Origin: an uncultured Gemmatimonadales bacterium
GTDB taxonomy: Bacteria; Gemmatimonadota; Gemmatimonadetes; Gemmatimonadales; Gemmatimonadaceae
Assembly (NCBI GenBank): GCA_963850905.1
Contig: CAWKMU010000004.1
Location: 448,001 to 512,000 of the forward strand
Length of the DNA stretch: 64,000 bases
Reading direction: 5' to 3'
Part shown: in pieces, positions 1 through 53,368 of the stretch
Layout of the letters: each line of letters starts with the position of its first letter
Numbering within the stretch: the stretch's first letter is position 1
Made by a program: the position numbers and the translations under genes
Notes under the pieces: model-generated
Told to the model about the DNA's origin: nothing
What the model saw: only the letters and a program-made list of their open reading frames with translations
Databases searched by the model: none

Positions 1-210
1 ATGGAGATGCCGTCCCTCAATCGCGCCCGCCGCTTCGCTCCTTGACGTCGTCTGCCTCGCATACGGCCCGATCAGCCTGGTCCCCCGACGCGCCGACCAA
101 GGTCCACTGTTACTCACAGTCTACGAGGAACACTGTGCGCACATTCGAGGCGCGGCGACACGTTCACGAAGCCAGCGGCATGACGACCCACGACGCGGAG
201 GACTCTGGCG

Positions 211-1351
211 ATGCGCCGCTCGACGCAAGTGATCGTTCGTGCCATGTGCGTCGCCCTGGTGACAGTATTGCTCGGCTGCCCGCACGTGCCAACACAATCC
301 GGCGCATTGGCCACCATCGAGGACCCGGCGGTGACCGCGATGCAGCTCAAGCTGCGCGTCTACGCAACCGCTAGCCAGGTGAATGCCGTCATTGAGACCG
401 CAGCCGACAGCATTCGCGCGAAGGGCGCTCTTCCCACGGTTCGCGAACGAGCGCTACTATGGAAGCTGTCGGCCATTCCCGCCGTGGAAGAGGCATCGCT
501 GGAGACTGATCCCACCGTCGCGGCGGTCGACCTCTGGGCATTCTCCGTACAGCAGCGCAACTATTTCGGTACTGGCGACGGGCGCGACGCATTCGGCTCG
601 TTTGAGCACATCGCGATTGCTGCCGCGGATACGATCGAGGGCGTTGTTCGGGCGCTGATTGCCGGCATTCGCACGACGAACACGATTGCGCCAGCGGCGG
701 ACGCCCGAGTAGAGGCCTGGGCGGCACAGCACCCGATCTACGGGCCGGCAATGCATCGTGAGTCCGTCCTTGCCTCGGATTGGCAGGCGCTCGGGGTACA
801 CTCGCAGAGCCTCGGGAGCGCGGTCGCCAGAGTGGAACAGTCGCTCACAGACGCCAACCAACGACTCGGGTACATGAACGAAGGGTTGCTCGACCGCGTG
901 ACGTGGCAGGCACAACTGGCAGCAAGCACCGCGCCGGTGACCGACCGCCTGGACACCCTCGCCGGCGACGTGTCCATCGCCATGCGGCGAATCGCTGTAT
1001 TCGCGACCGGCGCGCCATCGAGATTCGAGGAGGAGCGGCGTGAGCTGTTCGCCGCTATCGATGGGGAACGTGCGCGAGTGTTCGAGTCGATCACCGCGCA
1101 GCGAGTGGCTATCGCGGACGACTTACGCACCGGACGGCAAGCGGTCTTCGACGACCTGCGGCGGGAGCGAGTCGCAACTCTCGTTCAGGCCGATAGCATC
1201 ACGCAGCAGTCCATCGACCGCGCGGATGCCGCAGCGCGTCGACTCGCGCGCGACGTCGCCCTGTTAGCTGGCCTCGCTGATCGTCCTCGCCGGCGTCGTC
1301 GCCGATGTCGTCGTCACTCGCGCCAGCAGACGGAGGGCCGTGCACGCCTGA
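211..1351 (+). CDS. Hypothetical lipoprotein with coiled-coil region and C-terminal membrane anchor (probable frameshift near 1277)
   Basis: Lipobox-like LLGC after a hydrophobic stretch. After ~1277 a shifted frame reads LIVLAGVVADVVVTRASRRRAVHA* (TGA 1349-1351), more plausible than the Arg-rich tail of the track ORF. Confidence 0.6.
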
Positions 1352-1355
1352 CCGT

Positions 1356-1436
1356 CGGAGCAGCAGTTCGTTGGCTTCTCGGCGGAGCTGCAGTTCGCTC
1401 GCTTCTCGGCGCAGCTGCAGTTCGTTGTCTTCGTGG
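1356..1436. repeat. Three imperfect 27-bp tandem repeats (CGGAGCTGCAGTTCGYTSGCTTCTCGG-like)
   Basis: Read directly between convergent genes. Confidence 0.7.
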
Positions 1437-1499
1437 GGTTGCCCTTCGTCTATTTTCTACTTTCTGTAGTTCTACTCTCTAGCGCGAGCGAAGCAAGCG

Positions 1500-2948
1500 C
1501 TACGGGCCCCCGGCGAGTCGGAACCCGACGATGAGTGTCGCGGCGGTGTAGCCGACCTTGGCGCCACCGGGGACGATCGGGATGCCGCTCGACGTCGTTC
1601 CAGCGGTGGACGATTCCGTGTACGAGCCAAACGCAATGTCACCACCGAGCACAAATTGCGAGCCCGCGAGCCCCCACGACGCCCCGGCGGTCACATGCAC
1701 GAGATTCCATTGGGCAAGCAAAGCGTTGTTCTCATCCGGTGCGCCGATCGCGCTGTTGTCGGTGCGAAAACTCGCGTAGCCCGCTACCGTGGTGCCGAAC
1801 CGGTGCTTGACTCCAAGGCCGCCATTCACCACCGACTTGAGTTGCTCATCCACCGTGCCGGTCAGTGGCGGGCCGCCGGTCGCCGGTGTGAGCGGCAGCG
1901 GCGACAGGATCGAGTATTGGTCGACGGAGCCGAACCACTCGCCTGACACGTACAGCGTCGTCGCAGTGTGTGGGGGCCCCCAGCTGTAAGATCCGCCCGC
2001 GCCGATCGCGAATGGCGAGTTGATCGTGGAGGACAGGTTTTGCTGATAGCCGATTGCAATGCTGGGAGCTGTCGGGCCCGTGCCGCTTACGCCTTGGTTG
2101 ATGGTGGTCAACGTGCGGCCGACCGAGCCGCTGCCGAACAGATTGGCCCGGGGCGTGGTGATGACGAGCCCCGCAGTGAAATTGGGGTACACGATCCCGA
2201 GCCCGACCTTGGCCAGCAGGCCCCAGTTCGTGTAGCTGAAATCGGCCTCGCGAAGGTCGACGCCGCCAGCACCCGATGTGCCGAGTGCCGCCGCGAGCCC
2301 TGAAAAGTTGGCCGTTTGGCTGTGGACGGTGACGTACGGCGTGATGCCAAGGCCAATGTGTTCGTTGAACGGGTGTGAATACGTGATCCCCCCCCAGTAT
2401 TCCTCCATGTGCTGGTTCAGGATCAAACTGGCGGAGCCATAGCTGAGCTGCGGGCTGTCGATCGCCGAGTCGATAGGCAGGTTGCGTCCCTGAATCTGCG
2501 CGTCCAGTCGCTGGCGGGTCAGAAAGGAGTAAGCCAGGCGATCGTGTCCATGGAGGTGGATCTCGCCCGCAAACAGTGTGGGGACGCCGACGACCGACGA
2601 CGACCCGAGATTCTGCTTCGGCCCAAGGCCATTCACATAGCTGATCGATGAGAATTGATATGCGCTTCCCGCGATCGCGAGCCCCTTGTTGGTACTCAGC
2701 GAGAGCGAGCCGGGATCATAGTAGGTCGTCCCGATGTCGACCGGACTGCCAATAACGACGCCGCCGAGGAGTTGCGCCTCCGTCCCGTACGCGATGTTCC
2801 AGTATTGCGCGTCCTGCGCAGACACGATACGAGGCATGGCACTGCCGGCCAACGCCGCGAGCAGGACCCAGCGTCCACATCGCAGAGCACGCGTCACCAC
2901 CACATGCTGTCGACGTCGGACAGCCCTGACCAGTCGACTTAGGTCCAT
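1500..2948 (-). CDS. Outer-membrane beta-barrel, FadL/OmpP1-like
   Basis: Signal peptide ending VSAQ, hatch-like G..A.LLGG...YYDPGSL segment, amphipathic beta strands, C-terminal LIVGFRL. Confidence 0.6.
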   Translation of the reverse strand: MDLSRLVRAVRRRQHVVVTRALRCGRWVLLAALAGSAMPRIVSAQDAQYWNIAYGTEAQLLGGVVIGSPVDIGTTYYDPGSLSLSTNKGLAIAGSAYQFSSISYVNGLGPKQNLGSSSVVGVPTLFAGEIHLHGHDRLAYSFLTRQRLDAQIQGRNLPIDSAIDSPQLSYGSASLILNQHMEEYWGGITYSHPFNEHIGLGITPYVTVHSQTANFSGLAAALGTSGAGGVDLREADFSYTNWGLLAKVGLGIVYPNFTAGLVITTPRANLFGSGSVGRTLTTINQGVSGTGPTAPSIAIGYQQNLSSTINSPFAIGAGGSYSWGPPHTATTLYVSGEWFGSVDQYSILSPLPLTPATGGPPLTGTVDEQLKSVVNGGLGVKHRFGTTVAGYASFRTDNSAIGAPDENNALLAQWNLVHVTAGASWGLAGSQFVLGGDIAFGSYTESSTAGTTSSGIPIVPGGAKVGYTAATLIVGFRLAGGP

Positions 2949-3067
2949 TGTACGTAATCCATCACCGCTTCGTCGCATTGGGGATCCGTGATCGACTTCG
3001 CAGCACCGTCCCTACCACGATCTCTCGACGCACCACATCGGTTCGTCTTCCACCATCCAGTGTCTAT

Positions 3068-3116
3068 CGTCCAACGTCTAGCGTCCAGCGTCTAGCGTCC
3101 AGCGTCTAGCGTCCAA
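3068..3116 (+). repeat. Heptamer tandem array (CGTCYAR)x7
   Basis: cgtccaa cgtctag cgtccag ... read directly. Confidence 0.9.
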
Positions 3117-3255
3117 CTCAAGCATTCACCACGACCATGGTCCTTGGTCCAATGTCTCACACCAATTGCGGTCTGCTAATTAGCCGCAACGCAGTGGCGG
3201 AGTGAGCCGGTTTAGAAACACAGCAGCTTCGATGACGGTCGGCAGGAGGAATACC

Positions 3256-4392
3256 GTGGCGTTCAACCTGCTCGAATCAGTGTCGGACCTCACGAGCAAT
3301 GGATTTCCGGCTGCGGCAGCGCGATTCCTCGGAGAAACACCGGCGGCGACGAGAGCCGCGTTAGGCTACGTCTCGCCGGTCGTTGTCGCTGGCATCGCTC
3401 GACAGAGCCTCACCACGGAGGGTGCATCCGACGTCCTGGAGAGCCTCTCCTCGGCACCCGGCCTCGCGGATCTCCCCGATGCCAGTACGGTACTGAGTGG
3501 TGGGAGTCGAACGACCGGCCTGATCGCGCAGGGCACAGCGCTCGCTCGGCGATGGTTCGGCGACCGTGTCCAGTGGGCCGCCGGCAGCGTTGGTTCGCTG
3601 GCGAAGGTCAAGTCGGAATCGGCCTTGACACTGTTCTATCTCATGGTGCCACTCACACTGGCGTGCCTCAAGGAGCACATTGAGGGCGGCACCCAGGATG
3701 TCACCGAGCTCCAGCAGACTCTGGAGAGTCAATTCGCATGGGTCCAGGCGAGAATGGACCCCCGCGTCGCGGCGGCCGCAAAGCTTCGCAATGCTGGACT
3801 CGCTCGCGAGCCCGCGCCGAAACGACAACCATCGATTCGACCGATTCGTCCAGAGCGGCGTGAAGGCGAGACCGGGAGGTTCATTACACTGTCAGCCTTC
3901 GTGCTGGCCGCCCTGTTGCTGTTCGCGTTCCTCCGCGGACGCGCGACGAGTGCGGCCTCACACCCCGCACCGGCGTCCCCGCTGGTCGCCAGCACCGCGG
4001 CGCGCTTGGACCCGCACACGCGAGAAAACACGAGCACCACAAAGAGTGTCGCGACAGGTGAGGTGGCGTCGAGTGCCGCCGGCCTGCCAGTGATCGTACA
4101 CTTTGACGTGTCGTCAGCGGCGCTGTCGGCGGCCGATGAACAATCCGTCACGACGTTGGCCGACAAACTCACGCGCGACGGCACGCACATCGACATCACC
4201 GGGTACACCGATCAGACGGGCGGTCGGTCGTCAAACATCGCACTGGCGCGGCGTCGCGCTGTCACGGTGCACGATGCGCTCGTCGTCGCTGGCGTCCCGA
4301 CCAACCAGATGACGATGCGACCTCCCGCCGAGGTCGCGGACAGCGGCCCCGCGGAAGACGCGCGCCGCGTCGAGATTACGCTCGCGCCCTAG
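3256..4392 (+). CDS. DUF937-like N-terminal domain + TM + OmpA-like peptidoglycan-binding domain (paralog 1)
   Basis: GTG after AGGAGG. C-terminal motifs VHFDVSS, ITGYTD, N..LA.RRA..V, RRVEI. Confidence 0.85.
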   Translation: MAFNLLESVSDLTSNGFPAAAARFLGETPAATRAALGYVSPVVVAGIARQSLTTEGASDVLESLSSAPGLADLPDASTVLSGGSRTTGLIAQGTALARRWFGDRVQWAAGSVGSLAKVKSESALTLFYLMVPLTLACLKEHIEGGTQDVTELQQTLESQFAWVQARMDPRVAAAAKLRNAGLAREPAPKRQPSIRPIRPERREGETGRFITLSAFVLAALLLFAFLRGRATSAASHPAPASPLVASTAARLDPHTRENTSTTKSVATGEVASSAAGLPVIVHFDVSSAALSAADEQSVTTLADKLTRDGTHIDITGYTDQTGGRSSNIALARRRAVTVHDALVVAGVPTNQMTMRPPAEVADSGPAEDARRVEITLAP

Positions 4393-7608: not shown

Positions 7609-7757
7609 GTACGGGCGACGCTATGCGTCGCCCGCCTGGCACCGACCGCACATGGCCGTGGTTCGGCGGGTAGGGCGACGCCCTGCGTCGCCCGCCTGCA
7701 CCGACTGCACGGTGCCTGTGGTTAGGCGGGTAGGGGCGGCGATGCCATGCGTCGCCC
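7609..7757 (+). repeat. Three REP-like palindromes (GTAG-GGGCGACGC..GCGTCGCCC), ~60-bp period
   Basis: Copies start at ~7609, 7670 and 7730. Confidence 0.8.
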
Positions 7758-7763
7758 GCCGTT

Positions 7764-8583: not shown

Positions 8584-8667
8584 GGGTGCTGCTCCTGCGC
8601 CTCGCGCCTCGAGTCCCAACCGGTACCCACGCCTTCGGTACCCGCCGAGCTGAGGATTGATGTTTGA

Positions 8668-8709
8668 CGTCCAGCGTCCAACGTCCAGCGTCCAACGTCT
8701 ACCGTCCAA
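8668..8709 (+). repeat. Heptamer array (CGTCYAN)x6
   Basis: Read directly. Confidence 0.85.
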
Positions 8710-8770
8710 CCGTCTTCGTCGTCCGCTATGCACACCGCTAACACTCTCGTATAGTATGGGGGTTGGGCGG

Positions 8771-21714: not shown

Positions 21715-21841
21715 GCTCGAGTCCTTCGCGTTCGGTTGGTATGCAAGGTAGCGCGCCGACCGCCTGCGGCCAGTCAATGTCGGCAGCGGAGCACCCCGCC
21801 AAATTACCAGGGGGCAGTCACTGGCCCTCGGTGTTAGTTCC

Positions 21842-21878
21842 TGGCCCCTGACCCCTGACCCCTGACCCCCTGACCCCT
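21842..21878 (+). repeat. Heptamer array (TGACCCC)n
   Basis: tggcccc tgacccc tgacccc tgaccccc tgacccc. Confidence 0.85.
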
Positions 21879-30165: not shown

Positions 30166-30310
30166 GGACGCCACGCAAACAGCCGACGAGCCCGCGTCTA
30201 GCGGTCCAACGTTGAGATTGACGCCATCTCTTACCGGTATTCTACCCCGTGGCCTCAATCAGGCCGGAACGCACTCCCTGGGTAGCAGCCGTCCACCGTC
30301 TGGCGCCGAG

Positions 30311-30338
30311 TGTCTAGCGTCCAGCGTCCAGCGTCCCC
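30311..30338 (+). repeat. Heptamer array (CGTCYAG-like)x4
   Basis: Read directly; first and last copies imperfect. Confidence 0.75.
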
Positions 30339-34972: not shown

Positions 34973-35155
34973 GACCGGCTGGGGCGACGCATTGCGTCGC
35001 CCACCATGGCCGTCCGCAGAATCTTCGCTCAGGACGGATAGGGGCGACGCATCGCGTCGCCTGGCATGGCCGTCCGCTGAATCTTGCTTTGGACCGGTAG
35101 GGGCGACGCATTGCGCCGCCCGCCATGAGCCGTCCGCAGAATCTCGCTCGACGGT
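34973..35155 (+). repeat. Three ~60-bp units, each a REP palindrome plus a conserved CATG(G/A)..CCGTCCGC(A/T)GAATCT linker
   Basis: Read directly. Confidence 0.85.
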
Positions 35156-36618: not shown

Positions 36619-37371
36619 CTAGCGCATGGAGCAGTTGACGTAGACGAGGCCGCGGTGAGCGCTCGCGATCGCGCTCGTTCGCGGCAGCTCAGAGGCGTAG
36701 TCCCCGCGCTCGATCCGCCACAGATACGGAGGATGGGAGCCGGGATAGATGTCGACAACGCCGCCATCGAGCAGGTAGTAGGCATAGAGAAGGACGGGTG
36801 TTTCCTCGACCAGGAACATCGCCCACCGTTCGAGGCTCGCGGCGTCACGTGTCCCGTTGGCGCGGTCGCGTGCGTGCGCAACCACATCACTATAGAGGCA
36901 ACCGCGCGCCTCCCACGCCCCGTTGACTTCTCCGCTGAGCCAGGGCGGCGTCTCCGCTGCCAGGTCGCCCCACGAGATGAACGAGAGGCGTTGCGAGTCG
37001 TACCGACGCAGGATCCTGCGCACCTGCCGCACCCGGTCCTGGCTCAAGCGTCGCACACCATCGATCCCACGCTCGGCACTCTGTCCATTGGTTGCCGCCA
37101 CCGCATTACGCAGATACGGCCGGTCGACCACCGTGACGTAGCCGACCCGGAGGCACTCGCTGGCGAACCGGCAGTAGCCGTCGATGAGCGCCGTGGTGAA
37201 CAGGCGATTCTTGATGCTGACCATCAACATCCCGACGCGATCAACAAGGGACGTCGCGTCAGGTGGGGCCGTCCGGCAGCTCATCTCTCCCCCAAGCCGC
37301 TCGTGGCCGCGCCACGGAACCGAGAAGATGACGGGCGGATCGGCCGGTCGCGTCGTCGACCTGGCCGTCAT
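36619..37371 (-). CDS. tRNA-dependent cyclodipeptide synthase (CDPS)-like protein, XYP type
   Basis: ~250 aa. LMVSIKNRLFT (SxxN), VVDRPY..N, FLVEETP (Y/F-xxx-E-x-P) and DIYPG (YP) occur in CDPS order. ATG overlaps the upstream TGA. Confidence 0.65.
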   Translation of the reverse strand: MTARSTTRPADPPVIFSVPWRGHERLGGEMSCRTAPPDATSLVDRVGMLMVSIKNRLFTTALIDGYCRFASECLRVGYVTVVDRPYLRNAVAATNGQSAERGIDGVRRLSQDRVRQVRRILRRYDSQRLSFISWGDLAAETPPWLSGEVNGAWEARGCLYSDVVAHARDRANGTRDAASLERWAMFLVEETPVLLYAYYLLDGGVVDIYPGSHPPYLWRIERGDYASELPRTSAIASAHRGLVYVNCSMR

Positions 37372-38237
37372 GTGGCGCGCGAACTGACGAAGTCCCGCAG
37401 TCGCCGCGCCGCCAGCTCGAGGTGGCGGCCGACCGGAGGAAAACGTTTCACCCACGACGGGGTAATCCCGACCGTCTTGTTCGCGTCAATCACGGTCGCA
37501 ACATCATCCACCATGAAGTAGTCGATGGCGCCGAAGTCGAAATGCAGTGCGCGCCGCACAGCGATCACCGCATCAGGTACGTCCGAAAAGCACTCGACAC
37601 CCACGACATTTTCGGGGTCGCAGAGCAACCCTTGATGGGTAGACCGGATATTGAGCTCCACGTCGAAGAAGAAATCGTATCGGTATTTCTCTATGGGTGG
37701 CTCGAGACGTCCGGGCAGAAACCGCTCGACCATCAGCCGGCGATCGTCCCACACTGCGCCCGGCACGGCGGCCATCAATGGATACACGGAGTACTCCGGA
37801 CAGGCGCGGGCCACGAAGCGCGTGTCAATCCGGGTTCGGAGGTTGTGCCAGGCGCGCCGCGATAGCGTCCGCCGGCTCTCGAACCGGACCTCGGGCCACC
37901 CGTGGTGGTTGAGCACCGTCTTCACGATCACGGGCCCATCGTAGGCGTCGCCGCGAACGACACGGACCGTCGAGTACAGCAGGCGAGAGATGTTTGTGGC
38001 GCGCCCATTGACGCATGCCGCGTAGCCCTCTTCTATCCCACGAAAGGTGTCTGGCACCACCGTGAGGTCTACGTGGAGAAACGCGTGGCTCCCACAGTCC
38101 TGCGGACGGAAACGGTCCAGGATTCGATACGCCAGGCGATCTCCTCCAGCGGCGCGGAGCATGTGCTGCAGCTTGTAATCCTCGCTTTGCAGAAATGCAC
38201 GCGCGTTCTCGACATAGATGTCGAGCTGGGCTGACAT
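37368..38237 (-). CDS. Divergent ATP-grasp-like protein (paralog 1)
   Basis: GPVIVKT, LMVERF, DFGAIDY...VIDAN pattern; homologous to 46720-47742. Confidence 0.6.
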   Translation of the reverse strand: MSAQLDIYVENARAFLQSEDYKLQHMLRAAGGDRLAYRILDRFRPQDCGSHAFLHVDLTVVPDTFRGIEEGYAACVNGRATNISRLLYSTVRVVRGDAYDGPVIVKTVLNHHGWPEVRFESRRTLSRRAWHNLRTRIDTRFVARACPEYSVYPLMAAVPGAVWDDRRLMVERFLPGRLEPPIEKYRYDFFFDVELNIRSTHQGLLCDPENVVGVECFSDVPDAVIAVRRALHFDFGAIDYFMVDDVATVIDANKTVGITPSWVKRFPPVGRHLELAARRLRDFVSSRAT

Positions 38238-40318: not shown

Positions 40319-40388
40319 CGTCCAGCGTCTAGCGTCCAGCGTGCAGCGTCTAGCGTCTAGCGTCTAGCGTCTAACGTCCAGCGTCTAG
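40319..40388 (+). repeat. Heptamer array (CGTCYAG-like)x10
   Basis: Read directly. Confidence 0.9.
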
Positions 40389-40394
40389 CCTCTC

Positions 40395-41904
40395 CTATGG
40401 CGCCGCTGCCGGCTTGCCACTCGGCGCAGCGTGCGTGCCGTCAGGCCCGTGATCGTAATCCTGGACACTCGAGATATTGGGCATGCCCCAGTCGTGCCCA
40501 TTCCATCCATCGAAGCCGTCCATCCGGAAGAACCACACACCGGCGTCCTCGTCGCTGATCATGATCAGGCCGTCGCGATTCCGCACATCAATCCCAAAGG
40601 CCCCTTGATCGACGGACTGCGTGTTCATGAACGCGCGGGCCATTGATCCGATTCTGGTGGCTGCAGGGACAGGTGTAGTACCAGCCGACCTCGGTCGGGT
40701 GCGCTGGATCGTACATGCTGAAAATCTGCAGCCCGTCCTCATAGCCCGACACGAACACGAATGGCCAGCGTACCTCATGGTTGTGTGCGAGGTCCCGCCA
40801 GTCGGCCTGCCACGCACCGATCGGGTGGTTGATAGTCTGCACCTTCCCGTCGAGGCCCGGCTGCAGATCATACACGCGAAGCGGAGCGTATTGGTACTCG
40901 GTCTCCGTGATCGCGAATCGGCCGTCGGGACTCGGGGTGAACGTATGCCCCCAGTCGACGCCTGAAGAGCCGGTCACCGACGTCAGGAGCTTGGGCTGGG
41001 CGACGTCCGTGATGTCGTAGACATAGTATCCGCCCCGGCCGGCGCCATAGAACTTGTCCTGATGCGTCGCCGGGTCGTACGCGACATAGAAGTCGTGATA
41101 ACCCATGCGACCCAGCATGGTCGTCTCACGGGTGTCGGGCACAGGGACCTCGCCAATCTTCCACGCCGCTGGGTCGCCCCCTGAGACGACCTTGGCGAGG
41201 TCGTAGACGTTGGCACGTGGTGCCGCAACGGTCGCGAAGAGCAGCACACGGCCGTCCGAATGCTTGTACACGAAGGTATTGTGAAAGCCGCTCGGCGTCT
41301 CAGGCGCTCGAATGCGCGCGATGATCTTGATCTTGCTGGTGTCGGGAAGATCGGTGACGTCCGCAATCACCGCCCCAAGGTCTGCGTCGGGGGTGCCTTG
41401 GGCAAAGCCAAACGACTGCAGGTAATAGTATCGGCCGTTCAGCTTGAAGTACTTGCCATCCATTCCTCCAAGCATTCCCCGGTGAAGCGCAACGTTCTCC
41501 ACGGTCCATCGATAGAGCAAGCGAACGTTACTGAGGTCGTGGAGGTCGATGATCGCGAAGCCAGAGCGGTCCTGCGCCATCGAGACGTAGGCATATGGGC
41601 GGTTGGGATCCTGCTCGATCTCGTCATCCATGACGCGAACCGATCCGCCGAGCGGGATGTGCGCGATCGGATGGATGTTCGCGCTCCCACCGACCTTGAC
41701 CCCGGGGAGAATGCCGGGAGGGGCGGTCCCGGGAGCCTGCGCGACTACTGCCGCTGCGCTCGCAACCAGCGCGATGCCGACACCGGCGGCCTGCCACCGG
41801 CGCAATCGGTCGCCGCGCCGCGCCGTCCCCTGGCGCCGGGTGGGCGTACGTAGCTCGCGATGACGGCAGCGATCGTCACTTGCGGGAATTGGCATTGGTG
41901 GCAC
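40395..41904 (-). CDS. Secreted LVIVD-like propeller protein, paralog B (frameshift ~40645; start approximate)
   Basis: Shared blocks DGKYFKLNGRYY, GYHDFY, HNHEVRWP, GFDGWNGHDWG. Confidence 0.75.
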
Positions 41905-42798: not shown

Positions 42799-42832
42799 CC
42801 CTGACCCCTGACCCCTGACCCCTGACCCCTGG
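42799..42832 (+). repeat. Heptamer array (TGACCCC)x4
   Basis: Read directly; the minus strand is (GGGGTCA)n. Confidence 0.9.
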
Positions 42833-42861
42833 CGCCTGACACCGCCCTTTGCCGTCCGCCG

Positions 42862-43185
42862 TCAGTCCTTCCTTAGCTCCACGGGCTTGCCATGGGGTGT
42901 GTGCCGGTACGCATCCGCCCACGCCTCCTTACGCGCGAGCAATGCCGGCCGATCGGCCAGATTCTTGTCAATGAGTAGACGCTCGAGCGCCTGGAGCCAG
43001 TACTCGTAGTAGCGCGACCCATCGTCGGCCTCGCCGGTCTCACCAGCCTGCCGCAGCTCGTCGGCCAGCGCCGTCGTCCACTCCTTCCATGTGAAGTAGC
43101 CGCGCCGTGACAGCTCGACCGCGATCCCGAAGGCTTGCGCCTCCCATGGTTCGGCGAATACCCGCTCCGCATCGTCGCGCATCAC
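42862..43185 (-). CDS. Nitrile hydratase accessory protein
   Basis: VFAEPWEAQAF, FTWKEW, YYEYWL.ALE, AYRHTPHGKPV. Confidence 0.9.
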   Translation of the reverse strand: MMRDDAERVFAEPWEAQAFGIAVELSRRGYFTWKEWTTALADELRQAGETGEADDGSRYYEYWLQALERLLIDKNLADRPALLARKEAWADAYRHTPHGKPVELRKD

Positions 43186-43189
43186 AGGC

Positions 43190-43849
43190 TCAGGCGGGAT
43201 CAAGGTAGTCGTCCCAGAGATCCAGAAAGACCGCATCGCGTGGCGCCGCACGCTCACCCCAGAGCTCGCGCGCAGCGAACCGCACGGAATACACGTGCTG
43301 TGGCTTCTCACCGAGAAAATGAGCGTTGGTGTCCGGGAACACGAAGACACCGTGGTCGCGCGCAATGCTGCCAATCTTGTCGCGAGCATAGCGCGGCAGC
43401 CGGGTGTGGCCAGCGGGATGCATATTCTTCGTTCGCACCTGTTGGCCGGTGCGAAAGCGTGGTGTGACCGGAACGGCGCGGCTCGTGGGAATTCCCCCGG
43501 CGATGAGCGCCTGCGCTCGGGCCACCGTGAGAGCGGGCGTCACATCCGGCGAGGGAGTCGCTGGAGACGCGGCCGCGACTTCGGCCCGCGTGAGCAGACC
43601 GACCTCCACCATGAGATCGATAAATGCGGCGAGCTGACGTTCGTAGTAGCTCATCGCCAGGTAGTCGGCTGGTGGGACCCGCTCGACACCATAGCGCGTC
43701 GCATCGATGTTCCACTTGCCCCACGCGCCCATCGCGCGCCGCAGCGCGAACACGCGCGACTCCCACCACTCGTGAAAGACCGGCTCGTCGCGCTCGGGCG
43801 CGACCGCACCCATGCCCTGCATCCCTCCCATGTCATGCACGCCGTTCAT
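43190..43849 (-). CDS. nthB: Nitrile hydratase beta subunit
   Basis: [38 protein letters not shown]. Confidence 0.95.
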
Positions 43850-44451
43850 ACGGCGATGCGTCCCACGCCGATCATGGCATCACGCGTGACCACCGCAGCG
43901 AGCCGGTCCTCACTCCACCCCGCGGTCGCCGCGGGGCGCTCGGGCAACACCAGGTAGCGCACCTCGGCCGTGCTGTCCCACACACGGATCTCCACCTCCT
44001 CGGATATCTCGAGGCCGAATTCGCGCAGCACGCCACGCGGGTCGATCACTGCACGCGAGCGATAGGGCGCGGACTTGTACCACACCGGCGGCAGGCCGAG
44101 TACGGGCCACGGATAACACGAGCACAGCGTGCAGACGATGAGGTTGTGTACGGCTGGTGTATTCTCGACGGCGACCATGTGTTCGCCCTGCATGCCACCG
44201 TAGCCCAGCTCGCCGATCGCGGCATCTGCATCAGAGAGCAAGCGCTGCTTGTACGCGGGATCCGCCCACGCTCTTGCGACCACGCGGGCGCCGTTCCGTG
44301 GACCGATCTGGTGCTCATAGGCATCGATCAGCGTGTCGAGAGCCCGCCGGTCCACCAACCCCTTCTCGACTAACAGTGATTCGAGAGCTTTGACGCGGAG
44401 CGTGAGGTCTGACGGAAGCGCTTGGTGAGCGTGCTCGTGTGTGTGTGTCAT
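43846..44451 (-). CDS. nthA: Cobalt-type nitrile hydratase alpha subunit
   Basis: [10 protein letters not shown] (Co-type CTLCSCY), GLPP.WYKS..YRSR. Confidence 0.96.
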
Positions 44452-44578
44452 TCGCAAAAAACTACAGAGAGTCCGCGGTCTCCTCAACTCTGTATCGACG
44501 CAGTCACAAAGACCGGACATAGGCCTAAGGTCCACTGCTCCGGACACACGTCTCGTCGCGATCATCTCTCGCGCGAAC

Positions 44579-44612
44579 GTCCCATTATTTGGTAAAGTCC
44601 CATTATTTGGTA
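44579..44612. repeat. Perfect 16-bp direct repeat GTCCCATTATTTGGTA, 18-bp period
   Basis: Copies at 44579-44594 and 44597-44612. Confidence 0.85.
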
Positions 44613-44817
44613 GTAGTGGCAGCAGCGCACGAGGCGCCCACGTTGGCTGTGCCCAGACACCTCTCGACAACACAGTCTCTTCGATCACCGATCCAGGCGA
44701 TGAGCTGGGTACGGTAGGCACTGCACCGCTTCGAACGGGGGCAACGCCAGGTGACCAATGACACGACGGCTGAACGCCAGCAAGCACGGCCGACCACGGA
44801 GTCGGAAGGAGCATCAC

Positions 44818-45354
44818 ATGCCTAGCGCTCATGACCCTCGTCCCGATCGCCCAACCGATACGCCCAAAGCGCAAACCCGGAAGCGCAGTTCGCAAAAGGA
44901 GCAACCGATGGCAGATGTCGATGAACATGCAGCGTCAGCCGATCAATCTGCGACCAGGCTCTTCGCGTTCACCATCGATGCGAACACGGCGCAGATCGTC
45001 AAGCTCGAGAGCCTGGACTCGACCGGCAATCGGCACGAGTTGTCGGAAGACGAAATGGCCAACCTCGTCAGGGACGCTCGAGAGGACCGGCTCGAGAAAG
45101 TCGTCGAGCAGGCATTTGAAGCGGGCATTGCCTGCGTGCTGGACACCGGAATCGAACAGGACGACACGCACGAGTCCGCAGACGACGCGGAGCTCCGACA
45201 CATCCTGTTGACGCCGTTGATCGAGCGCAGCGCCGCCAAACACCTGATGGAGCGCGAGGTCTTGAATCGCGCCATTCTCGACACATTGATCGAGCATTCC
45301 ATGAAGGCACGCGGGACCGCCCATGAGGACGGGCCAACTGCCGGCGTGCAGTGA
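44818..45354 (+). CDS. Hypothetical acidic protein (alternative start 44908)
   Basis: Both in-frame ATGs follow AAGGAG; globular-looking sequence ([19 protein letters not shown]). Confidence 0.7.
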
Positions 45355-45417
45355 GATCGCTCTGGTAAACCCCGTTAGCTCTATCCGTTTCAGCAAACGA
45401 CAACGAGGAGACCCCCA

Positions 45418-46518
45418 ATGGCAACCACCATCGAGCATGAAGAACTTGCAGGAATCGCGGGCGCCGCGATGCGCGGCAAGCGGGCCCGTCGCGCACTCAT
45501 CGCCCACCTCCTGAAAGAGAGGAGCGAGGGCCAGGACGAGGAGGAGGGCGATGAAGGGTACAGCGAGGAAGGGGGAGGAGATGAGCGCAAGCTCGTTCGC
45601 CTCCTCATCGCCAGCCGCATCCTGCGCCGTCGACGACTGCGTCGCTTGGTCGTTGCGCACCTGTTGAGCGAAAAAGGTGAGGAAGGCGAAGAAGGCGATG
45701 AGGGTGAGGAAGGTGAGGAGGGTAGCGAAGAAGGGTCGACCGATGACCGCAAGCTCGTGCGTCTGTTGATCGCCAGCCGCATGCTCCGCCGTCGTCGCGT
45801 CCGCCGCGCTGTGCTCGCCCACCTCCTCAAGGAGCGAGGCGAAGCAGCGGAAGAGGGCGACGAAGGCGAAGAAGGCGAAGAGGGTGAAGAAGAGTCCGGC
45901 GCAGAAGGAGAAAGCGATGAGCGCACGCTCGTCCGTCTCCTGATCGCGAGCCGCATGCTCCGCCGCCGTCGCGTCCGCCGTGCCGTACTCGCCCACCTCC
46001 TCAAGGAGCGAGGCGAAGCAGCGGAAGAGGGCGACGAAGGCGAAGAAGGCGAAGAGGGTGAGGAAGAGTACGGCGAGGAAGGTGGAGGCGATGAGCGCAA
46101 GCTCGTCCGTCTCTTGATCGCCAGCCGAATGCTCCGCCGCCGTCGCGTACGCCGCGCAGTCATCGCCCACCTCCTGAAGGAGCGGGGCGAAGCCGGAGAA
46201 GAGGGCGACGAAGGCGAAGAAGGCGAAGAGGGTGAGGGAGAGTACGGCGAGGAAGGTGGAGGCGATGAGCGCAAGCTCGTCCGTCTCTTGATCGCCAGCC
46301 GCATGCTCCGTCGCCGTCGCGTGCGCCGCGCTGTTCTCGCCCACCTCCTCAAAGAGCGCAACGAAGGAGAGGAAGGTGAAGGCGATGAGGACGAGTCCGG
46401 CGAGGGTGACGGACGAAATCGAGAGCTCATGCGCCTGCTGATGGCTAGGCAGGCCGTGCGCCGCCGACGCGCGCGCCGTGCCGTCGCCTACTCCATGCAC
46501 AACGGACACGACGAGTAG
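45418..46518 (+). CDS. Tandem-repeat polyampholyte protein (Arg-rich segment / Glu-Gly tract)
   Basis: GAGGAG RBS. ~58-aa units; differences between copies are largely synonymous in this frame. Confidence 0.8.
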   Translation: MATTIEHEELAGIAGAAMRGKRARRALIAHLLKERSEGQDEEEGDEGYSEEGGGDERKLVRLLIASRILRRRRLRRLVVAHLLSEKGEEGEEGDEGEEGEEGSEEGSTDDRKLVRLLIASRMLRRRRVRRAVLAHLLKERGEAAEEGDEGEEGEEGEEESGAEGESDERTLVRLLIASRMLRRRRVRRAVLAHLLKERGEAAEEGDEGEEGEEGEEEYGEEGGGDERKLVRLLIASRMLRRRRVRRAVIAHLLKERGEAGEEGDEGEEGEEGEGEYGEEGGGDERKLVRLLIASRMLRRRRVRRAVLAHLLKERNEGEEGEGDEDESGEGDGRNRELMRLLMARQAVRRRRARRAVAYSMHNGHDE

Positions 46519-46624
46519 TCAGCGGAACAGCGGGCCTTGGGACTCGGGACCGCTTGAGATACAAAGACAGCGATTGCAAAGGGCCAGTGGCGGCTATCCG
46601 TCACTGGCCCTCACTGTATGTTCA

Positions 46625-46670
46625 CCCGTCATCCGTCACCCGTTACCCAGCCGTTCCGTCACCCGTCACC
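46625..46670 (+). repeat. Degenerate heptamer array (CCGTCAC)n
   Basis: ccgtcat ccgtcac ccgttac ... ccgtcac ccgtcac. Confidence 0.65.
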
Positions 46671-46719
46671 CTTCCACGCCGGCTTGACACTGGCCCACCC
46701 CTTCGAGGAGCCAACAAGC

Positions 46720-47742
46720 CTGAGACTCGCCATCTACGAGTGGGATGCCTGGCACCAGTTCATGCTGGTGCGCGCCGTCCCGGAAGCCGTTCGGGTCAGC
46801 GCTCGGATAGGCGAGAGCGCTGACGAGATCCTTGCCCGTCTGCCGGGAGGGATCAATGCCTTCGCGTTCCATCTCAACATGACCGCGACTGCGGCTTTTC
46901 CGGCAGACCGGCAGGTACTCGTTCACGAGTTGCTCGCACGGGGGATCGTGCCACTCAACGGGGCCGTCACCGACATCTCCAAAACCCAAGTCCACGCTCA
47001 ATGCCGGGCGTTCGGACTCCCGAGCCCCGCGACCGACATCCATGGCGAGGCATCGGAACTGGTGATCGTGAAGACTGATCTCAACTTCGGCGGCAGGTCT
47101 GAGCGACAGCTTCCGTCGGCGCACTCGGGCACCATCGGGCCGCAGATCTCGGCAGTCATGTCCGACTGGACCGCCTATCAGATCATGCGCCGCGAGGAAG
47201 TGCCAGCCGCGTGGTGGAATGATGCCGCGCTGGTCATCGAGCGCTTCATCGACAATCGCGCGCAGCACCTCTACCGAGTCAATTTTGCAGGCGATCGTGT
47301 CGTCATTCTGCGGCTGACCAATCCGCACCCGCTCAAGAAGATCGTGAACTCGACGGCCCGCCTCGACGTGTACTGCCGGACCGAGGATCTCGCGACCGGC
47401 GCCGTCGCCGGCGTGGAGCCGCTCGTCGCCGCCGCGATCGTAAGGTACCTCGACCGATCCGGCATGGACTTCGGCGCGCTCGAGATCATTCCGGATGATG
47501 CGGGCCACGCGTACATCATTGATGTCAACAGCACGTGCTACGCAAAGGTGCTCAATGTGCGGATCCTCACGTACCTCCGTCGGGGACTGTTCGCGAGAAT
47601 CGCGGCGCGAGCCGCCGGCCTGGGATGCCCGATCCCCCAATGGCGCACCCTCGCCCTCCCAACCTGGCCGATGCTGCGCAGCGACGCGAAACGCCTAGCC
47701 GAAACGCTGATGTCCCGTACCCGCCGCGCACCCAGCACCTGA
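46720..47742 (+). CDS. Divergent ATP-grasp-like protein (paralog 2; start uncertain)
   Basis: LNGAVTDISK, VIVKTDLNFGG, VPAAWWND..LVIERF, DFGALE...IIDVN. Confidence 0.62.
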   Translation: MRLAIYEWDAWHQFMLVRAVPEAVRVSARIGESADEILARLPGGINAFAFHLNMTATAAFPADRQVLVHELLARGIVPLNGAVTDISKTQVHAQCRAFGLPSPATDIHGEASELVIVKTDLNFGGRSERQLPSAHSGTIGPQISAVMSDWTAYQIMRREEVPAAWWNDAALVIERFIDNRAQHLYRVNFAGDRVVILRLTNPHPLKKIVNSTARLDVYCRTEDLATGAVAGVEPLVAAAIVRYLDRSGMDFGALEIIPDDAGHAYIIDVNSTCYAKVLNVRILTYLRRGLFARIAARAAGLGCPIPQWRTLALPTWPMLRSDAKRLAETLMSRTRRAPST

Positions 47743-53309: not shown

Positions 53310-53368
53310 CTTCTAGCGTCTAGCGTCTAACGTCTAGCGTCTGGTAGGGGCGACGCATTGCGTCGCCC
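53310..53368 (+). repeat. Heptamer array (CGTCTAG)n abutting a REP palindrome
   Basis: cgtctag repeats run straight into GTAGGGGCGACGCATTGCGTCGCCC. Confidence 0.85.

Follow-up and report, generated by a model that had tools for sequence, protein, structure and literature searches.

To our knowledge, few bacterial condensate scaffolds are known. In PopZ of Caulobacter crescentus, helical stickers and an acidic spacer tune the condensates, with valency and spacer length both mattering (sections of PMC9512792). CsoS2 carries repeated binding motifs on disordered linkers, and CcmM has two translation starts (sections of PMC13159521). More generally, phase separation is favoured by segregated charges and by Arg in preference to Lys (10.1101/2020.01.06.894576, in part).

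The window analysed here, a 64,000-nucleotide stretch of DNA from an uncultured Gemmatimonadales bacterium, contains two adjacent genes, A and B, the second of which encodes a repeat protein. Like PopZ, B combines helical segments with acidic disordered spacers, features known here from sequence and prediction. PopZ, as the sections cited describe it, has a single spacer and a single helical domain at its C-terminus, whereas B has two to eight alternating units, Arg patches that balance its spacers and a dedicated partner gene; no Pfam or NCBIfam match at E up to 1 indicates PopZ homology. B also resembles CsoS2, EPYC1 and CcmM, as far as the cited sections go, in placing repeats on disordered linkers, and the inferred dual start of A recalls the CcmM isoforms, although it belongs to the partner, not to the repeat protein itself. 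B showed no homology to these three proteins. A role as a CsoS2/EPYC1-type linker was rejected, since a Pfam scan of 109 clusters of A-B neighbours contained no Rubisco or shell genes. Like charge-block disordered regions of the Ddx4 type, insofar as the cited part covers them, B alternates blocks of net charge and prefers Arg, but its basic blocks are conserved, predicted amphipathic helices with a regular 49-58-aa period, and it carries no enzyme domain. Judged by homology and gene context, B is a member of none of the PopZ, CsoS2/EPYC1-linker or Ddx4-like groups. The pair and its family are apparently new, with no credible match in the libraries and literature searched, and the likely physics of A-B has, by analogy, precedent.

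Gene B: repeat layout and coding evidence

Gene B and its parts lie on the forward strand of the window:

45418..46518, +, gene B, a multiblock polyampholyte of 366 aa with 75 K/R and 94 D/E (open reading frame and dN/dS)
45406..45410, +, Shine-Dalgarno site AGGAG of gene B (most loci have a similar site before B)
about 45445..45522, +, degenerate N-terminal block (tblastn with the core block, E 5e-4)
45586-45675, 45748-45837, 45922-46011, 46096-46185 and 46270-46359, +, five core Arg-rich amphipathic blocks with acidic linkers between them
45523-45585, 45676-45747, 45838-45921, 46012-46095, 46186-46269 and 46360-46413, +, six acidic Glu/Gly/Asp linkers
about 46420..46497, +, degenerate C-terminal block (tblastn with the core block, E 1e-3)

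A preliminary description of the open reading frame had recognised the five core blocks, the two degenerate terminal ones and the six acidic tracts, all of which we recovered as mapped above. The core blocks are 30 aa each, with start-to-start spacings of 54, 58, 58 and 58 aa, and TRF reports a tandem array with a 174-nt period (3.9 copies, 88% matches), in line with the central unit of 58 aa (174 nt) proposed earlier. The blocks had also been called near-identical. This label fits blocks 2-5 only, which mutually differ at 0-2 residues, since block 1 differs from the rest at 6-7 of 30.

Over all 10 block pairs, codon differences are synonymous in 106 cases and non-synonymous in 31, and dN/dS among blocks 2-5 is 0-0.07. 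Compared with its orthologs in L001, a Gemmatimonadales MAG and the closest named relative, and in genome G623, whole B yields dN/dS values of 0.118 and 0.065, respectively. The blocks alone give 0.044 and 0.035, and the linkers plus ends 0.14 and 0.067, indicating purifying selection there too. The earlier claim of mostly synonymous variation under selection on the protein is therefore borne out: gene B, which is single-copy in its genome, is a real gene under purifying selection. To judge from its Shine-Dalgarno site, it is probably well translated.

These data leave a practically negligible probability that B is non-functional, whether it arose by expansion of low-complexity sequence, by collapse during assembly or as the shadow of a 524-aa antisense frame opposite it (44935-46509). 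That long frame is what speaks for such a reading, but it is open because B lacks the codons TTA, CTA and TCA, and in L001 it is interrupted, while the forward frame evolves at a dN/dS of 0.065-0.12. Five core blocks are present in all three assemblies compared (this genome, L001 and G623) and DNA identity among the repeat copies reaches only 88-91%, which makes a collapsed or inflated repeat, a possibility raised in the preliminary description, unlikely.

The charged-residue fraction of B (0.46) is the highest among 2801 ORFs of 200-600 aa in the genome. Its charges are strongly segregated, with a kappa of 0.447 compared with 0.144 +/- 0.024 in 100 shuffles (shuffle maximum 0.204), as expected of the block-charged polyampholyte described before. 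The long-range measure SCD is 0.46 versus 2.6 +/- 1.5, a value as low being reached in 8.5% of 200 shuffles and hence not clearly below chance; the short alternating blocks may thus merely self-neutralise within one chain. The low-confidence AlphaFold2 model (mean pLDDT 64, pTM 0.23) shows no globular domain or global fold; its blocks are helical with a central break, and its linkers have pLDDT <50. Each block is accordingly predicted to form a broken, two-part amphipathic helix, and the spacers to be disordered.

Other repeats in the window are short arrays with a 7- or 14-nt period (3056-3117, 8667-8715, 21840-21878, 30290-30336, 40319-40393, 42799-42840 and 53312-53342), which comprise two related sequence types and are intergenic where checked. 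In addition, REP-like arrays with a 60-nt period and a common palindromic start occupy 7609-7760 and 34981-35149 (2.5-2.8 copies). The overlapping reverse-strand ORFs 40588-41904 and 40395-40871, within 40395-41904, look like parts of a single gene whose frame shifts near 40620-40870, and L001 has a similar split.

The B family: conserved blocks, drifting linkers and balanced charge

B belongs to an apparently undescribed bacterial family, as judged by its relatives. A word-indexed search recovered 78 of these (201-357 aa), all 78 with the block, and a representative search returned 129 rows, 125 with the block; 16 rows are common to both. The block search with a comparison of repeat counts, proposed in the preliminary description, gave 2-8 blocks among 45 complete single-frame B genes from fetched loci, as counted by a profile that under-counts degenerate ends. 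Over 239 copies, the block consensus is hxRLL[IV][GA]SRhLRRRRhRRhhhAHLhRE. Family blocks carry 10-12 basic residues each, with Arg strongly preferred (5549 Arg versus 665 Lys in the family), and one Ser is conserved per block (86%); acidic positions are not conserved. Blocks are more alike within one protein (0.80) than between proteins (0.68).

The blocks are joined by acidic spacers some 19-28 aa long and recur with a period of 49-58 aa. The linkers do not align and switch freely between Glu-rich and Asp-rich versions; 231 of them contain 37% E, 22% G and 20% D. Nevertheless, the (K+R)/(D+E) ratio has a median of 0.886 (IQR 0.873-0.907) in 114 distinct proteins, a set from which nine hybrid, frameshifted or partial proteins had been removed and whose members are related, so that the spread of the ratio understates independence. 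Net charge is negative in 110 of the 114, and the charge of the linkers follows that of the blocks (r 0.58). Overall charge balance, as read from these sequences, is tightly kept in the family, slightly on the negative side, while linker sequence drifts.

Cyanophycin is a nitrogen and arginine store. Nitrogen storage had been among the functions first suggested for B, which would then be a ribosomally made counterpart. The family composition (19% Arg, 24% Asp+Glu), strong ribosome sites and variable repeat number would suit such a store. Nitrogen per residue, however, is only modestly high (1.62 versus a genome-ORF median of 1.48), at just the 78th percentile of a reference set that includes some spurious frames. 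Moreover, a block dN/dS of 0.04 and the fixed hydrophobic pattern exceed what a store needs, and no mobilising enzyme is linked to B. We therefore regard the store reading as very improbable.

Neither Pfam nor NCBIfam holds a credible family match for A or B. The preliminary description had named membership of B in a characterised family as evidence against its reading, and no credible match of this kind emerged. NCBIfam matches to TilS_C and beta-lactamase stem from repeated or biased composition, and PHROGs tail-fibre matches fall largely on the Gly/Glu linkers. DUF4054, an automatically assigned label of many B proteins, reaches 38.7 bits on whole B, above its cut-off, and Atlas clusters bear this label at 0.81-0.85; we rejected the identity as spurious, because the score sums repeated weak matches with no passing stretch (0 found; the best covers 36-61, or 26/105 profile positions). 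The ESM Atlas gave no usable match for A and four clusters scoring <0.9 for B, which serve as leads only. Searches of PDB sequences produced no B match at E up to 10 and nothing credible for either protein, and Foldseek against the PDB and viral models likewise found no credible match. The best VIA-align hits of the low-confidence models, for A (Z 3.7, rmsd 4.2, 53 aligned) and for B (Z 5.0, rmsd 1.5, 42 aligned), are to generic helices. Searches of titles and abstract openings returned nothing on the A/B family. In the portion of a tandem-repeat protein survey that we consulted (PMC11417379), the main text lacks the searched terms, and its supplement might list the B family.

Partner gene A and the A-B unit

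Upstream of B lies a conserved partner gene that the preliminary description had missed. Its features, and a hairpin that follows B, are:

44818..45354, +, gene A, long form of 178 aa with a 30-aa low-complexity N-tail (Shine-Dalgarno site AAGGAG at 44806-44811)
44908..45354, +, gene A, putative short form of 148 aa from a second in-frame ATG (second AAGGAG at 44896-44901)
44962..45144, +, conserved N-terminal part of A, with a near-invariant FEAGI motif at its end (alignment and AlphaFold2)
45178..45297, +, C-terminal helices of A, similar to a single B block except that the poly-Arg patch is replaced (reciprocal profiles)
46580..46611, +, strong GC-rich hairpin after B (81-nt region, -33.3 kcal/mol, z -4.9)

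Gene A has 281 homologs. The protein is acidic, with a net charge of -18 here and a median of -9 in 120 homologs. Its N-terminal part is modelled by AlphaFold2, at low confidence (pTM 0.27), as three short strands and two helices. At least two in-frame starts with their own Shine-Dalgarno sites occur in 29 of 50 scorable loci (83 loci, of which 55 were parsable and 50 of these not cut), as they do in the A gene of the window, suggesting that A may be made as two isoforms. The K-E codons preceding start ATGs of A read AAGGAG in every K-E case counted, a count that includes related sequences and pools first with internal starts; in B, Glu codon use is equal (GAG 39, GAA 39).

The C-terminal helices of A and the B block find each other reciprocally: among 5025 genome ORFs, an A-only profile ranks A 1st and B 3rd, and a B-only profile ranks B 1st and A 12th, in the same register. 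By hhalign the likeness is only 0.5% (E 0.11), and the segments were chosen after it had been noticed, which makes this a post hoc test. The B searches yielded 196 proteins, and five of these are hybrids that join A and B in frame (P0051, P0066, P0158, P0199 and P0123); such hybrids may be natural fusions, decay products or assembly chimeras. No long fusion of A was found at 383-2000 aa, which is weak evidence.

The two genes are tightly linked. Among 80 metagenome loci selected through A, 68 have B directly downstream on the same strand, and the remaining 12 end within 237 nt of A. A is present in 14 of 401 genomes of the family, with B behind it in 14/14; B is clearly matched in four of 401 phylum genomes, with A present in 4/4. 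Beyond these, G557 was matched at E 4e-4, and a match in G170 (E 1e-3) lacks the block. G558 has a truncated A, so that some lineages may do without this gene; G501 has a frameshifted B, and the truncated A of locus L104 could reflect either natural decay or mis-assembly. Over 55 loci, which are related and hence not independent, A and B distances correlate (Mantel rho 0.60, permutation maximum 0.28). No third conserved gene was found near A-B, the commonest neighbour cluster occurring in 9 of 87 loci.

The hairpin downstream of B lacks a T tract and so was not called by the terminator scan; it is the probable 3' end of an A-B transcript. Of 34 dereplicated loci, 26 have a strong hairpin no more than 130 nt from the stop codon of B, strength being judged against 15 simple shuffles per locus. 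In 20 loci chosen by hand for their similar hairpin, both sides have changed in 6 of the 10 pairs. A GC-rich stem with compensatory changes is shared across the divergent loci L013, L015, L023, L028, L041, L066, L068 and others; the window's own hairpin differs from it in sequence. Strict A-B pairing, the lack of a third shared gene and the usual hairpin together define the unit as A, B and the hairpin. On the 5' side, 33 dereplicated upstream regions contain no shared promoter motif, no sigma-70-type site was found for the unit, and the locus has no Rfam matches of note. Divergent from A, the window encodes nitrile hydratase alpha, beta and accessory genes (42862-44460, -), the beta gene having its N- and C-terminal Pfam domains in one unsplit ORF. 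An 18-nt direct duplication (about 44579-44612) lies between these genes and A and has no counterpart in the L001 translation.

Beyond the hairpin, ORF 46618-47742 (+) weakly matches the ATP-grasp peptide maturase TIGR04187 (E 0.0099, far below the cut-off). The preliminary description had likened the linkers to alpha-tubulin tails and had proposed a multi-core modification substrate. Substrates of TTL carry a C-terminal EEY-type tail on a tubulin fold, and graspetide precursors consist of a leader and cores with conserved Ser/Thr/Lys and Asp/Glu cross-link pairs. That B is a multi-core RiPP precursor or a tubulin-tail-like substrate of this downstream gene appears extremely improbable. The TIGR04187 match and the position of the gene behind B in G000, G278 and G623 argue for it, but these genomes all belong to one genus, and the gene is absent from the 80 metagenome loci (many short; 28 of 87 loci extend 1.3 kb downstream of B) and from 17-kb regions of G131 and G337. 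Furthermore, it has four more paralogs elsewhere in the genome, on contig C3, and the strong hairpin separates it from B. For these reasons, we rejected both its membership in the A-B unit and, as adjacency is confined to one genus, a graspetide-type precursor with a conserved adjacent ligase; no graspetide-type leader was recognised in B. The lack of a third conserved gene, with no enzyme travelling with B, argues against a modification substrate in general. The ATP-grasp-like family has a second member in the window (37368-38237, -), neither member having a credible Pfam match, and seven matches in G623 compared with none in four other congeners.

The tubulin comparison fares no better. Some B linkers are Glu/Gly-rich like the tubulin tail, but they are internal, and C-terminal Tyr occurs in 3 of 114 B proteins. 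EEY is found once in B and in 12 of 231 family linkers, the tail motif quoted earlier is absent from B and from all 231 (0/231), and linker Tyr is not conserved. With no globular domain in the model either, a tubulin-tail or TTL substrate was rejected; because the block is conserved and the linker sequence is not, the likeness is coincidental.

A-B occurs in Gemmatimonadales relatives and many metagenome contigs; a low-complexity pattern scan of named genome contigs returned one locus. As leads only, the Atlas clusters scoring <0.9 contain Pseudomonadota members, and some neighbour genes look proteobacterial. Neither flank gene was found in four congeners without A-B, and the control genomes gave none either. 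On the 786-kb contig of L047, genes for an AbiEii-type toxin and for a DNA methylase occupy 193-3313, 3-5 kb upstream of A, which suggests a mobile island in this locus alone.

A patchy two-gene unit with a small acidic upstream gene and unrelated flanks also calls to mind an addiction or defence pair. B would then be a polyprotein of cationic amphipathic peptides, membrane- or ribosome-active, masked by acidic pro-pieces and freed by proteolysis or by an invader's polyanion, with A as antidote. The blocks do resemble such peptides, and animal antimicrobial-peptide precursors contain acidic spacers. On the other hand, PADLOC, which does not cover novel systems, gave no family match (0 at E up to 0.01) to any of 7 proteins, and A-B was not found in the viral contigs, plasmids or phages searched. 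The 109 neighbour clusters are mostly ordinary metabolic and transport genes mixed with regulatory ones, with a few transposases and one AbiEii; a conserved exporter or protease is not among them. The 79 B proteins scanned lack a Tat motif, neither A nor B proteins have a membrane segment, and B has its own strong ribosome site. Taken together, this makes such a pair improbable.

A candidate self-neutralising scaffold

We tentatively favour, at a probability somewhat below even, a two-component, cytoplasmic sticker-and-spacer scaffold that neutralises itself, with A as a co-assembling cap or adaptor. The Leu/Ile/Val faces of the B blocks would act as stickers packing block to block, and the Arg patches would be neutralised by acidic spacers of the same or other chains, so that B would condense into a granule, a gel or a network of filaments, with its charges balanced and its valency set by repeat number. 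The C-terminal helices of A, block-like but poor in Arg, would dock it onto this assembly, where it would serve as cap, nucleator or adaptor and display its conserved N-terminal domain. RNA, DNA or polyphosphate could compete with the spacers and thereby enter or dissolve it. Of the functions first proposed for B, condensate or filament formation and polyanion binding remain plausible on sequence grounds. The cellular purpose, for example sequestration at times of stress, is a guess.

Several features point to this scaffold reading: the strict linkage and correlated divergence of A and B; conserved blocks with free spacers, a kept charge ratio and Arg over Lys; variable repeat number with blocks more alike within proteins; and modelled helices on disordered linkers. 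Further pointers are the reciprocal likeness of the A C-terminus and the B block and the five in-frame hybrids. Against it stand the weakness of that likeness by hhalign and its post hoc nature, the possibility that the hybrids are chimeras or decay products, the absence of a client or shell gene among the neighbours scanned, and the patchy distribution (14/401 genomes in the family), which means that A-B is no core cell-organising scaffold.

An overlapping alternative, which we consider unlikely, is that B is a multivalent binder of nucleic acid or polyphosphate, such as a nucleoid compactor or RNA chaperone, auto-inhibited by its acidic spacers, with acidic A as chaperone or release factor. 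The Arg-dominated blocks and the negative charge of A throughout its homologs fit this proposal; the negative charge of nearly all whole B proteins and the tracking of block charge by linker charge do not, and neither A nor B matched a nucleic-acid-binding family or fold in the libraries searched. Returning to the scaffold reading, a bolder version, doubtful but with a real chance of being right, would make A-B an undescribed mobile, two-component membraneless body. B, charge-balanced and tunable in length, would self-coacervate through its helical stickers, and A, derived from a block by loss of the Arg patch and present as two isoforms in some lineages, would cap the network and recruit a client, with polyanions (polyphosphate, RNA) as the switch.

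The scaffolds compared here are tied to known clients such as Rubisco or cell-pole regulators. A-B is a two-gene unit. B reads like a designed multiblock polyampholyte, and A-B is a possible minimal scaffold for synthetic organelles. In the course of evolution, the valency of B (2-8 blocks) and its linker sequence have varied while charge balance was held within a few percent; the family therefore offers a natural series in which to study how block number and charge pattern relate to assembly.
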